64,000 nucleotides of DNA. Source: Escherichia coli. Its GTDB lineage: Bacteria; Pseudomonadota; Gammaproteobacteria; Enterobacterales; Enterobacteriaceae. Within the stretch, counting starts at the first letter, position 1. Each line of letters starts with the position of its first letter. The translations under genes were made by a program, and so were the position numbers. Positions 6,269 to 47,525 of this stretch are shown here, piece by piece. The notes below the pieces were generated by a model. It did no database searches and was not told the DNA's origin. It worked only from the letters and a program-made list of their open reading frames with translations. The DNA lies in assembly GCF_003790525.1 (NCBI RefSeq), contig NZ_CP033635.1; one strand, given 5' to 3'.

Positions 6269-6364
6269 CATTACAGAATTTAATTTCTTTAAATAACAGT
6301 AAATTAAAAACTGGCATGATTTGTGAATGTATCGGCGCATTAACTGTCATTGCTGGAGAATTTG

Positions 6365-9363: not shown

Positions 9364-10497
9364 CTACATCGGCAACGTTTTCAACAATCCAAACGCCTCT
9401 TTCATCCGATCCTCACTGACCACAAAGGCGCGAAGCTGGTCAGCATCGTCAACACCGCGCGCAACCATTCCCTGGCGTTCGGTATTAATTTGCCAGCGTA
9501 AATCCTGACGCTGGGTTTCGCCTGCCAGATGCAGCGGTAATTCTGGCGTTTTGATTTTCACCAGCATCGCCGGGAGTTTCAGCGGCGTGTTATTGCCGAG
9601 AAGATTTTTTGCCAGCACCATTGCGCTAAGTTGAATCGGCTGGAGGAACGGCAATACCTGACCGTTAATTTCCGCGCAATCGCCCAGCGCATAAATATCG
9701 GCATTACTGGTTTGCAGATAACTATCGACGCAAACGCCACGATTAATCGTCAGCCCGGCGCGTCGTGCCAGGGCGGTTTCCGGGCGCAGTCCGGTGGCGG
9801 CAATTACCGCATCCACTTCAATGCAGCGCTGGCATTCCAGCGTTGCCAGAATGCCAGAATCCGTTTTTTCCAGTCCCTGCAACTGAGATTTTAACAGCAG
9901 ATGAACGCCCATCTCCGTCAACCGATGCTGCAAGCGGCTGCTTACTTCCGGTGGCATTAACGACGCCAGAATACTGGCAGCGTTGTCGATCAGCGTGACC
10001 GCTTTGCCTGCCCGACAAAAATCCATCGCCAGCTCGCTACCAATCAAGCCACCGCCAACAATCAACACGCGTCGGGCATCCCGCAGTTGCGTTTCACAGG
10101 CGCGATACTCTTGCTGACTATTTAACGTCAGCATTAACTCACGCCCGGGCACTGGCGGGACAAAGGCGCTGGCACCGGTTGCCAGCACTAACTTGTCGTA
10201 TTGCCACTGATTATTCTGACTTTTCACCACATGGGCTTCGGCATCGATATCCGTTACCCAGGTGTGCGGAAACAGGCGCAGATTAAACTGCTCGGCAAAT
10301 TCACCTGCCGTCTGGCGGGTAAGGTCGTCGGCACGTTGCCCCTGACTGATAACATGGCTGAGGTCAGGTTTGTTGTACTCATCCATGCTGTCGGCGGCAA
10401 TCAGAGTTAATGGAATACTGGCGTCCTGTTTGCGAATATTTTTCACCAGTTGGCGGGCGGCGAAGCCCGAACCAATGATCACAATGCTGTTGCTCAT
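9364..10497 (-). CDS. norW: NADH:flavorubredoxin reductase NorW
   Basis: 377-aa ORF beginning [22 protein letters not shown]; start overlaps the norV stop. Confidence 0.9.
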
Positions 10498-11933
10498 TTT
10501 GCCTCCGATGCCAGTTCGTCAAAGACGTCTTTGCCGAGAGAGCATTCCGGGCACAGGAAGTTATCCGGGACTTCACTCCACGGCGTTCCTGGCGCAACGT
10601 CCTGCATTGGCTCACCTTTTGCCGGATCGTAAATCCACTGGCAGACGCTGCATTGCATCCGTGGGCCGAGGTCAGCCGTCGTGGTGGCAGAGGTTTCTTC
10701 TTTAACTACCGTATTCACCGTGCTCTGCGGCAGCGGCGCGAGCGCCCACTGACGGGCGATTTCGCGACCGTGTTCACGACATAACTCCAGAGCGTCCTGG
10801 TCTGGTCGCCATTTGGCTTTCAGGCTAAGCGACATTTCGAAACCCGCATCCTGCAGGCGCGTGGAAAGACGATCCACCGCACCGCCGCTCCAGCCGTGAG
10901 AGCCGAAAGCGCTGGCGCGTTTGTTACGGAAGCGTAATCCGGTCATCTCCTCCACCAGCCCGGCGATTTTCGGCATCATCACATTATTCATCGTAGAGGT
11001 GCCGACCAGCATGCCTTTTGAGCGGAAGACATTGGTCAGGATTTCGTTTTTATCGCTTCGGGCGACGTTGAAAATTTTCACCGCCACGCGTGGGTCGGTT
11101 TCCGCAATCCCCTGGGCGATAGCGTCAGCCATCATGCGGGTGTTATTCGACATGGTGTCGTAGAAAATGGTGATTCTGTCTTCCTGATAATCCGCCGCCC
11201 ATTTCAGGTACAGCTCGACAATTTGCGTCGGGTTATCGCGCCATACCACGCCGTGAGAGGTCGCTATCATATCGACTGGCAAGTTAAAGCCCAGGATCTC
11301 GGTAATTTTCGGCGTTACCAGGCGGCTGAACGGCGTCAGGATATTGGCGTAGTAACGCTGGCACTGCTCGAAAAGCTCCGTCTGATCCACTTCATCGTTG
11401 AACAGATGCTCGTCGCAGTAGTGCTGACCGAAAGCATCGTTACTGAACAGCACCGCGTCGCCTGTCAGGTAAGTCATCATGCTGTCCGGCCAGTGCAGCA
11501 TTGGCGTTTCGACAAAAATGAGCTGTTTGCCGTTGCCGATATCCAGCGTGTCGCCAGTTTTCACCACATTAAAATTCCACTCCGGATGATGGTGATGACC
11601 ATTTATCGAGTCGATAGCGTTGGCAGTACAGTAGATCGGCGTATCGGGAATTTGTGCCATCAGTTCGGTCAGCGCCCCGGCGTGGTCCTCTTCAGCATGG
11701 TTAATTACGATGTAATCGATATCTGCCAGATCGATTTCATTACGCAGGTTCTGCACAAATTCGCGGCTGAATTTATGGTCGACGGTGTCGATCAGCACGT
11801 TTTTTTCTTCACGGATGAGGTAGCTGTTGTAGCTGCTGCCGCGCAGCGTTTTATATTCTGTACCGTGAAAATCACGCACTTCCCAGTCACGTTGACCAAC
11901 CCAATGAATGTTATTTTTCACCACAATAGACAT
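10494..11933 (-). CDS. norV: Anaerobic nitric oxide reductase flavorubredoxin NorV
   Basis: 479-aa ORF with metallo-beta-lactamase and flavodoxin regions and a C-terminal rubredoxin CxxC...CxxC. Confidence 0.9.
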
Positions 11934-11979
11934 AGCAACCTCAATTTATTCAGCGTGTTCTAAAAAGATGTCTTGCTAA

Positions 11980-11997
11980 TTGCAGATTGCGTGCCAG
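11980..11997 (-). promoter_or_regulatory. Sigma-54 (-24/-12) promoter of norVW
   Basis: Minus-strand reading CTGGCACGCAATCTGCAA fits the TGGCAC-N5-TTGCA consensus, about 45 nt upstream of the norV start. Confidence 0.75.
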
Positions 11998-12051
11998 TTT
12001 TTTATCTGATTGATTTTTATGTATAAATTAATTCATGCTCATTAATGAGTA

Positions 12052-12062
12052 GTCAAAATGAC
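12052..12062. promoter_or_regulatory. NorR enhancer site 1 (GT-N7-AC): GTCAAAATGAC
   Basis: Inverted-repeat GT-N7-AC motif in the norV-norR divergent region. Confidence 0.7.
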
Positions 12063-12075
12063 TATTAATCAAATG

Positions 12076-12086
12076 GTCGATATGAC
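12076..12086. promoter_or_regulatory. NorR enhancer site 2: GTCGATATGAC
   Basis: Second GT-N7-AC motif, 24 bp from site 1. Confidence 0.7.
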
Positions 12087-12096
12087 AATATCTATA

Positions 12097-12107
12097 GTCA
12101 AATTGAC
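12097..12107. promoter_or_regulatory. NorR enhancer site 3: GTCAAATTGAC
   Basis: Third GT-N7-AC motif, 21 bp from site 2. Confidence 0.7.
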
Positions 12108-12119
12108 AGTGAGGCAAAG

Positions 12120-13634
12120 ATGAGTTTTTCCGTTGATGTGCTGGCGAATATCGCCATCGAATTGCAGCGTGGGATTGGTCATCAGGATCGTTTTCAGCGC
12201 CTGATCACCACGCTGCGTCAGGTGCTGGAGTGTGATGCCTCTGCGTTGCTACGTTATGACTCGCGGCAGTTTATTCCGCTTGCCATCGACGGGCTGGCGA
12301 AGGATGTACTCGGTAGACGCTTTGCGCTGGAAGGGCATCCACGGCTGGAAGCGATTGCCCGCGCCGGGGACGTGGTGCGCTTTCCCGCAGACAGCGAATT
12401 GCCCGATCCCTATGACGGTTTGATTCCCGGGCAGGAGAGTCTGAAGGTTCACGCCTGCGTTGGTCTGCCATTGTTTGCCGGGCAAAACCTGATCGGCGCA
12501 TTGACGCTCGACGGGATGCAGCCCGATCAGTTCGATGTTTTCAGCGACGAAGAGTTACGCCTGATTGCCGCGCTGGCGGCGGGAGCGTTAAGCAATGCGT
12601 TGCTGATTGAGCAACTGGAAAGCCAGAATATGCTGCCGGGCGATGCCGCGCCGTTTGAAGCGGTGAAACAGACGCAGATGATCGGTCTGTCGCCAGGCAT
12701 GACGCAATTGAAAAAAGAGATTGAGATTGTGGCGGCGTCCGATCTCAACGTCTTAATCAGCGGTGAGACGGGAACCGGTAAGGAGCTGGTGGCGAAAGCG
12801 ATTCATGAAGCCTCGCCAAGGGCGGTGAATCCGCTGGTCTATCTCAACTGTGCCGCACTGCCGGAAAGTGTGGCGGAAAGTGAGTTGTTCGGGCACGTGA
12901 AAGGGGCGTTTACTGGCGCTATCAGTAACCGCAGCGGGAAGTTTGAAATGGCGGATAACGGCACGCTGTTTCTGGATGAGATCGGCGAGTTGTCGTTGGC
13001 ATTGCAGGCCAAGCTGCTGCGGGTGTTGCAGTATGGCGATATTCAGCGCGTTGGCGATGACCGCAGTTTGCGGGTCGATGTGCGCGTGCTGGCGGCGACT
13101 AACCGTGACTTACGCGAAGAGGTACTGGCAGGGCGATTTCGCGCTGACTTGTTCCACCGCCTGAGCGTGTTTCCACTTTCAGTGCCGCCGCTGCGTGAGC
13201 GGGGCGATGATGTCATTCTGCTGGCGGGGTATTTCTGCGAACAGTGCCGCCTGCGGTTGGGGCTCTCCCGCGTGGTATTAAGTGCCAGAGCGCGAAATTT
13301 ACTGCAACACTACAATTTTCCGGGGAACGTTCGTGAACTGGAACATGCTATTCATCGGGCGGTAGTGCTGGCGAGAGCCACTCGCAGCGGCGATGAAGTG
13401 ATTCTTGAAGCGCAACATTTTGCTTTTCCTGAGGTGACGTTGCCGCCGCCAGAAGCGGCGGCGGTGCCTATCGTTAAGCAAAACCTGCGTGAAGCGACAG
13501 AAGCGTTCCAGCGTGAAACCATTCGTCAGGCACTGGCACAAAATCATCACAACTGGGCTGCCAGCGCACGGATGCTGGAAACCGACGTCGCCAACTTGCA
13601 TCGGTTGGCGAAACGTCTGGGGCTGAAGGATTAA
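12120..13634 (+). CDS. norR: Sigma-54-dependent NO-responsive regulator NorR
   Basis: 504-aa ORF with N-terminal GAF-like region, AAA+ sigma-54 activator domain (GETGTGKE Walker A, GAFTGA-like segment) and C-terminal HTH. Confidence 0.9.
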
Positions 13635-25766: not shown

Positions 25767-25859
25767 GGTGAGGTGGCCGAGAGGCTGAAGGCGCTCCCCT
25801 GCTAAGGGAGTATGCGGTCAAAAGCTGCATCCGGGGTTCGAATCCCCGCCTCACCGCCA
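25767..25859 (+). tRNA. serV: tRNA-Ser (anticodon GCU)
   Basis: 93-nt cloverleaf with long variable arm, GCT anticodon and CCA end; begins GGTGAGGTGGCCGAGAGG. Confidence 0.9.
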
Positions 25860-25862
25860 TTT

Positions 25863-25939
25863 GCATCCGTAGCTCAGCTGGATAGAGTACTCGGCTACGA
25901 ACCGAGCGGTCGGAGGTTCGAATCCTCCCGGATGCACCA
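25863..25939 (+). tRNA. argV: tRNA-Arg (anticodon ACG), copy 1
   Basis: GCATCCGTAGCTCAGCTGGATAGAGTACTCGGCTACGAACCGAGCGGTCGGAGGTTCGAATCCTCCCGGATGCACCA, 77 nt. Confidence 0.9.
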
Positions 25940-26003
25940 TCTCTTACTTGATACGGCTTTAGTAGCGGTATCAAAAAATCTGCAGTAAAGTAAGTTTCCC
26001 GAT

Positions 26004-26080
26004 GCATCCGTAGCTCAGCTGGATAGAGTACTCGGCTACGAACCGAGCGGTCGGAGGTTCGAATCCTCCCGGATGCACCA
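26004..26080 (+). tRNA. argY: tRNA-Arg (ACG), copy 2
   Basis: Identical 77-nt tRNA-Arg sequence. Confidence 0.9.
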
Positions 26081-26142
26081 TCTCTTACTTGATATAGCTT
26101 TAGTGGCGGTATCAATATCAGCAGTAAAATAAATTTCCCGAT

Positions 26143-26219
26143 GCATCCGTAGCTCAGCTGGATAGAGTACTCGGCTACGAACCGAGCGGTCGGAGGTTCG
26201 AATCCTCCCGGATGCACCA
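26143..26219 (+). tRNA. argZ: tRNA-Arg (ACG), copy 3
   Basis: Identical 77-nt tRNA-Arg sequence. Confidence 0.9.
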
Positions 26220-26282
26220 TCTCTTACTTGATATGGCTTTAGTAGCGGTATCAATATCAGCAATAAAATAAATTTTCCCGAT

Positions 26283-26359
26283 GCATCCGTAGCTCAGCTG
26301 GATAGAGTACTCGGCTACGAACCGAGCGGTCGGAGGTTCGAATCCTCCCGGATGCACCA
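26283..26359 (+). tRNA. argQ: tRNA-Arg (ACG), copy 4
   Basis: Identical 77-nt tRNA-Arg sequence; its 3' flank differs from copies 1-3. Confidence 0.9.
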
Positions 26360-29267: not shown

Positions 29268-29340
29268 AAAAAGGCCACTCGTGAGTGGCCAAAATTTCAT
29301 CTCTGAATTCAGGGATGATGATAACAAATGCGCGTCTTTC
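29268..29340 (-). ncRNA. micA: MicA (SraD) small regulatory RNA
   Basis: Minus-strand sequence GAAAGACGCGCATTTGTTATCATCATCCCTGAATTCAGAGATGAAATTTTGGCCACTCACGAGTGGCCTTTTT matches recalled MicA, including its terminator hairpin and U-run; it lies in the gshA-luxS intergenic region. Confidence 0.8.
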
Positions 29341-35934: not shown

Positions 35935-36014
35935 GTAGGTATGATAAGACGCACCAGCGTCGCATCAGGCATTGTGTACAGAGCGGCGGATGAGGCAAAA
36001 ACGCCTTATCCGCC
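35935..36014. repeat. REP/BIME element
   Basis: gtaggtatgataagacgcaccagcgtcgcatcaggc...ggcggatgaggcaaaaacgccttatccgccc. Confidence 0.7.
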
Positions 36015-36024
36015 CGAATAAAAA

Positions 36025-46858: not shown

Positions 46859-47525
46859 GCTAATGCTCCTTAATAAAAGCGTAATGGGATGTTAATGGAG
46901 ATGAAAGCAGTGGATCTCATTGCCATCTGCATTTTCGCATAGCGTATATCGCTGGCTATGACTAATCAATTAGTGAAAAATTTTTATTTAATCTGTTTTT
47001 GTAGATAAAATATTCCGTAACAGCGCGTTTTTTGTACATTGTGGATTTTTACATGCCGATATGATTTATTTTTAATTAAATCAATTGGATATGTGTTTAC
47101 CTTTATTATCACTCATGAAGGTTTGGGGGTGAGGTAACGCTATAAGCGTAGAGAATTCGGTGTATGTCGTGACCGGGTCATTTTCAGCATTTTTTATGCC
47201 AGAAAATGTACATTGACAGCAGAAAGCACCAGTGAGGGGTGTTTCCATTTATTCGGTTAAATTGCATTTTTATTCATTTTTGTTTTGTCAGGCTTGCGGA
47301 ATTAGCGAGCAGAGAGCGCCGCTCTGCTCACAAATAACCGAAATTACTCATCAAAATGGCTAATATATAATCTTGAAATTATTCTGAGAGTTTCAGAAAA
47401 TAACAGCTGAAATAATCTCGCGCAGGACTGTAAATAGATTAAATTTTGTGGAAATATAATAAGTGATCGCTTACACTACGCGACGAAATACTTTTTTGTT
47501 TTGGCGTTAAAAGGTTTTCTTTATT

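Follow-up and report, generated by a model that had tools for sequence, protein, structure and literature searches.

In E. coli K-12, the norV promoter (norVp) and NorR sites 1 to 3 were reportedly described by Tucker et al. 2004 (J Bacteriol 186:6656) and by Gardner et al. 2003, and Tucker 2004 is likewise said to have reported conservation beyond E. coli. Activation in vivo, ATPase activity, and formation of the open complex each depend on the full set of three sites, and DNA carrying the sites promotes assembly of a hexameric ring (PMC2831303). This evidence comes from methylation protection, ATPase, open-complex, and lacZ assays performed on K-12 sequences identical to those described here (PMC2831303), and genomic SELEX found NorR bound to the norV-norR spacer only (PMC8249747). 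NO is sensed at a mononuclear iron in the GAF domain, and IHF reportedly bends the DNA (PMC4601167), binding between the start site and the NorR sites (PMC2831303; PMC4601167). The promoter sequence CTGGCACGCAATCTGCA corresponds to the K-12 sigma-54 ChIP-seq peak OS25, which is 11-fold above threshold, carries the EcoCyc label "experimentally confirmed", and lies on the same strand as norV with a predicted start 37 nt from that gene (PMC4591121). For E. coli norVW, Rodionov et al. 2005 list TGGCACgcaATcTGCA as the sigma-54 site and, in a supplementary table, three NorR sites identical to ours (PMC1274295).

We compared with this system a norV-norR intergenic region in a 64-kb stretch of E. coli DNA (the whole of which is called the window). 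The gap at 11934-12119 runs exactly from the norV start (ATG at 11933, minus strand) to the norR start (12120, plus strand); it is 186 bp long, has a G+C content of 31%, and is flanked on either side by divergent open reading frames. An earlier note on this DNA had named the same interval as the norV-norR divergent region, and its bounds match both start codons exactly. norV is the first gene of the regulated operon and norW the next, the norW start and the norV stop overlapping by 4 nt, and both products gave full-length equivalog matches (Table 1). gutQ and hypF neighbor the norR-norVW genes in the E. coli order. E. coli SMS-3-5 and several further strains match 701 bp around the gap at 100% identity, and RefSeq annotates norR and norV under the matching stretch in 5,425 of 5,426 complete E. 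coli genomes. Since the match to SMS-3-5 is perfect, norR and norV are annotated, and the proteins reach equivalog level, the identity of the locus is secure. We regard it as virtually certain that this is the known norR-norVW control region of E. coli and that it works as in K-12. No rpoN or IHF gene is present in the 64-kb window, and an Rfam scan of the whole window at gathering thresholds found no structured RNA in 9364-13634. Elsewhere in the window, the same scan returned the MicA sRNA, a five-tRNA cluster and one more tRNA, and the REP-derived naRNA4 (29269-29340, 25767-26356, 35938-36015, and 60181-60253), none of them unusual for this chromosomal region of E. coli.

Table 1. Genes and control elements of the norR-norVW region, in window coordinates
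Feature	Position	Strand	Description
norW	9364..10497	-	NADH:flavorubredoxin reductase, 377 aa; NCBIfam NF003437 equivalog, 683.4 bits (cut-off 392)
norV	10494..11933	-	Flavorubredoxin NO reductase, 479 aa, intact; NCBIfam NF003954 equivalog, 1045.9 bits (cut-off 711)
Predicted norV 5' leader	11934..11970	-	37 nt, from the predicted start; identical to K-12
Sigma-54 norVW promoter	11981..11997	-	CTGGCACGCAATCTGCA; -24 GG at 11995/11994, -12 GC at 11983/11982
Enhancer-promoter spacer	11998..12051		54 bp, 81% A+T
NorR enhancer site 1	12052..12062		GTCAAAATGAC; promoter-proximal; centre ~-87 from the predicted start
NorR enhancer site 2	12076..12086		GTCGATATGAC; centre ~-111 from the predicted start
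NorR enhancer site 3	12097..12107		GTCAAATTGAC; centre ~-132 from the predicted start
norR	12120..13634	+	NO-sensing sigma-54 activator (GAF, AAA+, DNA-binding domains), 504 aa, intact; NCBIfam NF003451 equivalog, 825 bits (cut-off 476)

The genes, the 186-bp length of the gap, the 17-mer of the promoter, the leader, the three NorR sites, and the spacings between the sites are identical to those of the K-12 norR-norVW region. Nine single bases of the intergenic region differ from K-12 MG1655: eight cluster within 27 bp of AT-rich spacer (12013-12039), the ninth (12066) lies between sites 1 and 2, and no defined element is hit.

To locate the promoter, we relied on both a consensus pattern and a weight matrix. 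Across both strands of the 64 kb, the pattern TGGCAC-N6-TGC[AT] matched once, as TGGCAC-GCAAT-CTGCA at 11996..11981 on the minus strand. The full element, CTGGCACGCAATCTGCA, points at norV, lies 54 nt to the promoter side of NorR site 1, and departs from the TGGCAC-N5-TTGCW consensus at a single position, a C for T before the GC, with GG and GC spaced 10 nt apart. The matrix had 17 columns and was derived from 133 ChIP-seq motifs of Bonocora et al. 2015 (PMC4591121), with norV and hydN omitted. On this leave-out matrix the norV element scored 17.33 bits of a possible 22.3, above 123 of the 133 training ChIP sites, and ranked second of ~128,000 positions (both strands, 64 kb), while the next best score within the intergenic region was 7.96 bits. 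By the exact score distribution, ~0.065 chance matches of at least 17.33 bits are expected per 64 kb on both strands, and ~1.4-1.7e-4 in the intergenic region. The earlier note had described a near-consensus TGGCAC-N5-CTGCA on the minus strand with the repeats upstream of it, and had named both a matrix scan and a comparison with the published norV promoter as ways of checking it; the scan returned the element at that position and on that strand, and the published 17-mer is identical (OS25, PMC4591121).

Applying the rule of PMC4591121, by which transcription begins 19 nt downstream of the motif centre (here 11989), we infer a norV transcription start near 11970. The leader that this predicts has the same length, 37 nt, as the distance listed for K-12 norV, and a Shine-Dalgarno sequence, GAGG, is located at 11942..11939, 5 nt before the norV ATG. 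Among the sampled E. coli alleles, the only variant of the promoter was CTGGCATGCAATCTGCT in O145 RM9467 (L124), at the equivalent of 11981-11997. It carries a C-to-T change in the -24 box and an A-to-T change after the -12 GC (TGGCAT...CTGCT), and both changes stay inside the sigma-54 consensus.

The other top matrix matches in the window are the known ChIP sites alaE, hydN, ygaC, and ygaP, which validates the matrix. The best match of the window, CTGGCATAAAAAATGCT (47186-47202, minus strand, 17.5 bits), is located in the stpA-alaE divergent region, ~320 nt upstream of a 149-amino-acid frame taken as alaE; the names stpA and alaE were assigned from the sizes of the open reading frames (149 and 134 amino acids) and from synteny and are thus provisional. 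In K-12, the sigma-54 ChIP-seq data include its sequence as a low-stringency peak assigned to alaE (PMC4591121 supplement). A further sigma-54-like sequence, TTGGCTCACCTTTTGCC, runs antisense inside norV and towards norR (10607-10623, plus strand, 12.6 bits); the K-12 equivalent, TTGGCTCGCCTTTTGCC, is listed among the low-stringency ChIP peaks as intragenic and antisense, norR being the gene downstream (PMC4591121 supplement). The hydN (hydN-hypF) promoter, CTGGCATGATTTGTGAA (6311-6327, plus strand), is identical to the published K-12 site (PMC4591121) and, although left out of the matrix, was recovered at 12.6 bits; its predicted start lies 27 nt before the ATG (6365), as published (PMC4591121).

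The three NorR sites are 11-bp inverted repeats, all of the form GTC-N5-GAC, with gaps of 13 nt between sites 1 and 2 and 10 nt between sites 2 and 3. The GT-N7-AC repeats that the earlier note had placed at 12052, 12076, and 12097 are exact to the base, and they are the only three matches to GT-N7-AC in 11901-12150. Taken alone, GT-N7-AC is a weak motif: it occurs 201 times in the 64 kb, three other places carry three copies inside 60 bp, and the probability of at least three copies in the intergenic region is ~0.014-0.018. GTC-N5-GAC occurs 11 times in the 64 kb, and three of these copies are in the norV-norR gap (P ~2e-6); no other triple cluster of it exists in the 64 kb, and none of 20,000 shuffles of the region reached one. 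The significance of the sites rests on these longer palindromes, not on GT-N7-AC. Sites 1, 2, and 3 are the repeats that were mutated as NorR sites by Tucker et al. 2010 (PMC2831303), and the mutagenic primers Site1, Site2, and Site3 of that study, when reverted to wild type, give the window sequences around 12052, 12076, and 12097.

A perfect GTCA-N3-TGAC palindrome, GTCACGTTGAC, at 11886-11896 within norV codons 13 to 16 (G-Q-R-D), was considered as a fourth NorR site and rejected. The third base of its Gly codon varies in relatives (GGC, GGA, GGG), so that the palindrome is lost and the protein stays the same, and the published reporter fragments truncate it, their ends falling inside it (primer norVfusion, PMC2831303). 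The palindrome is best read as a by-product of the conserved G-Q-R-D peptide.

The NorR sites were unchanged in the sampled E. coli alleles, with the exception of a deletion in strain AF3 (NZ_OZ547117.1; L127, 3001-3141). The norV-norR spacer of AF3 is 141 bp rather than 186 bp long; 45 bp, corresponding to window positions 12059-12103, are missing, and site 1 and site 3 are fused into a single hybrid site, GTCAAAATGAC. The match spans at least 80% of the region in every one of the 5,426 records but AF3. Because all three sites are needed according to published work, norVW of this blood isolate is predicted not to be induced by NO.

The intact norR frame has the domains expected of the regulator by Pfam: GAF at residues 22-154, Sigma54_activat at 187-353, and an AAA lid at 359-420, with GAFTGA at residue 262. 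The iron ligands R75, D96, D99, C113, and D131 (ligand list from PMC4601167) are present, five of five. Pfam gave no match to the C-terminal helix-turn-helix at an E value of ≤0.001, and the equivalog model spans residues 2-503. On the K-12 model, three NorR dimers would occupy the three GTC-N5-GAC repeats and assemble into a hexamer, and sigma-54 RNA polymerase would wait at the -24/-12 element (11997..11981, minus strand) as a closed complex. IHF would bend the 54-bp AT-rich spacer so that NorR meets the polymerase. Binding of NO to the non-haem iron of the GAF domain would lift repression of the AAA+ ATPase, and ATP hydrolysis would then open the promoter, with norVW transcribed leftward from ~11970. 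With its end 12 nt from the norR ATG, site 3 lies over the norR 5' region; because the sites reach this close to the start codon, bound NorR is placed to affect norR transcription too, and may do so. NorR is annotated as a dual regulator, and the position of site 3 fits that annotation. A consensus scan of the region found no sigma-70 promoter for norR on the plus strand; TATAGT at 12093-12098, picked out by eye as a norR promoter element, was set aside for want of a convincing -35 sequence.

To examine how far the arrangement extends, we searched 100,044 species, each represented by one genome, for TGTC-N5-GAC, 8-12 nt, GTC-N5-GAC, 11-15 nt, and GTC-N5-GAC, a pattern that carries zero promoter information. 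It matched at least 120 stretches of DNA, and at least 36 of the matches adjoin a divergent norR homologue (44-99% identity). These represent other proteobacterial species, belonging to Escherichia, Citrobacter, Enterobacter, Klebsiella, Pectobacterium, Morganella, Moellerella, Moritella, Shewanella, Salinivibrio, Pseudomonas, Comamonas, Mitsuaria, Cupriavidus, Azospirillum, and others. Sigma-54 elements were then sought within 200 nt on the promoter side. In 33 of the 36 norR-adjacent matches listed, the best sigma-54 match was a sense-strand, TGGC-containing -24/-12 element of at least 9 bits, 39-74 nt downstream of site 1, and most of these elements were TGGCAC or TGGCAT. Among the scored matches listed, 117 of 153 were without norR, being tandem-repeat arrays and chance matches, and served as negative controls. 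The median sigma-54 score was 13.7 bits in the sense orientation; it fell to 3.4 when the antisense strand was scored and to 2.6 for the 117 matches without norR (among the matches listed). The gaps between sites summed to 23 nt in 22 of the 33 loci listed, the E. coli combination of 10 + 13 being the commonest. As judged from these matches, conservation of both elements, and of their order, orientation, and approximate spacing, extends well outside E. coli, as Rodionov 2005 reported earlier (PMC1274295).

Across the 33 loci listed, the distance from site 1 to the sigma-54 17-mer falls into classes of 39-42, 52-55, 63, and 73-74 nt. Successive classes are ~10-12 nt apart, about one turn of the helix, a pattern suggesting that the helix face is conserved while the length between enhancer and promoter varies. 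The pattern also caught DNA of other kinds: dispersed tandem arrays with a 22-bp period (TGTCATTTCGACC plus 9 variable nt) in an unclassified MAG, "bacterium isolate H5_UNCL2" (L103-L121), and a 23-bp-period array (TGTCCTGCGGACCCC...) in a Sandaracinus sp. MAG (L021-L027). Both sets of arrays are unrelated to NorR.

Two readings would deny the region its known mode of control. The first, that the motifs are chance matches in an AT-rich gap with no regulatory role, is favored by the commonness of the bare GT-N7-AC motif (201 copies, three other triples, P ~0.015). In addition, ~0.065 sigma-54 matches of 17.3 bits are expected per 64 kb, so that in the window as a whole such a match is not exceedingly rare. 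The GTC-N5-GAC cluster, however, is unique (P ~2e-6, 0 of 20,000 shuffles), just ~1.5e-4 promoter matches are expected in the region itself, the position and orientation of both elements are kept in 33 of the 36 norR-adjacent matches listed, and the motifs coincide with experimentally defined sites (PMC2831303, PMC1274295, PMC4591121). Conservation and the literature matches refute the chance reading, and we give it practically no credence. Transcription of norV mainly from a sigma-70 promoter inside the enhancer, with the NorR sites acting as a classical operator or activator site, could draw on TTGTCA-16 nt-AATAGT at 12088..12061 on the minus (norV) strand, which agrees with the consensus at 9 of 12 positions and was the single match in the consensus scan. 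Yet shuffled sequences are expected to yield 0.9 such matches, and the TTGTCA belongs to one half of NorR site 2. In published assays, open-complex formation on this fragment depended on sigma-54 (PMC2831303), the -24/-12 element is occupied by sigma-54 in vivo in K-12 (PMC4591121), and what is conserved in the cross-species matches listed is the -24/-12 element rather than the hexamer pair. We consider such a promoter extremely improbable as the main source of norV transcription. Nothing found in this analysis contradicts the known norR-norVW reading.

A milder alternative accepts the known architecture and proposes that the spacer allele shifts IHF binding or intrinsic bending, so that output differs quantitatively from that in K-12. 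The eight spacer changes at 12013-12039 define a minority allele: a spacer at least 99% identical to that of the window was found in 39 of 5,426 complete E. coli records, AF3 among them. Both this rarity and the packing of eight of the nine K-12 differences into 27 bp of spacer speak for the proposal, as does an improvement of the best IHF-consensus match from two mismatches to one. That match, to WATCAANNNNTTR, is AATCAATCAGATA at 12015..12003, with one mismatch where K-12 has two; matches in the enhancer are equally good, so that AATCAATCAGATA is one of several candidate IHF sites. On the other hand, the spacer is still 54 bp long and AT-rich, leaving the phasing unchanged, and spacer sequence varies freely across species, as does spacer length, in steps of 10-12 nt. 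Because the spacer stays at 54 bp and AT-rich while its sequence varies freely between species, the variation suggests relaxed sequence constraint rather than tuning. A quantitative difference from K-12 therefore seems unlikely to us, and that the allele would alter IHF binding or DNA bending and thereby retune the strength of the norVW response to NO is a doubtful proposition. We retain the reading of the region as the K-12 type of NorR- and sigma-54-dependent control region.

The NorR enhancer and the sigma-54 norVW promoter were already known, and the architecture is not new. The earlier note had said that its motifs agree with the known NO-responsive regulation of norVW, which they do, the sites and promoter being identical to the published K-12 elements. 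Its description of the architecture as "complete" held for the NorR sites and the promoter and left out the AT-rich spacer bound by IHF. The locus had also been offered there as an internal check on motif reading, and it is a valid control, accurate to the base. Its value is as a control only: accurate motif reading here lends some credit to the other motif calls that the note made in the window.

Features shared with the norR-norVW loci described in other Enterobacterales, in Vibrionales, and in Pseudomonas (Rodionov et al. 2005, PMC1274295) are a norR in divergent orientation, three GTC-N5-GAC sites in tandem whose gaps add up to 21-24 nt, and, downstream of them, a TGGCAC-type -24/-12 element on the sense strand. 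From enhancer to promoter the distance is 52-55 nt for the E. coli-like group; others, such as Pectobacterium, Klebsiella sp., Moritella, and Pseudomonas, have 39-42 nt, and the spacer sequences are unrelated. The hmp/fhp and norAB/norB systems of Vibrio cholerae, Pseudomonas aeruginosa, and Ralstonia eutropha likewise combine a NorR-family regulator, tandem GT-N7-AC motifs, and sigma-54 dependence (PMC2831303; PMC1274295), but their targets are a flavohaemoglobin or a membrane NO reductase, whereas the target here is flavorubredoxin. NtrC-glnAp2 and other promoters served by enhancer-binding proteins have in common with norVp an upstream enhancer, a -24/-12 element, DNA looping that is often assisted by IHF, a hexameric AAA+ ring, and ATP-driven formation of the open complex. 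NorR differs from the NtrC type in that its assembly into a hexamer requires three DNA sites, which act as a ligand (PMC2831303), and in that it is controlled by NO at the iron of its GAF domain, not by phosphorylation-driven oligomerisation (PMC2831303).
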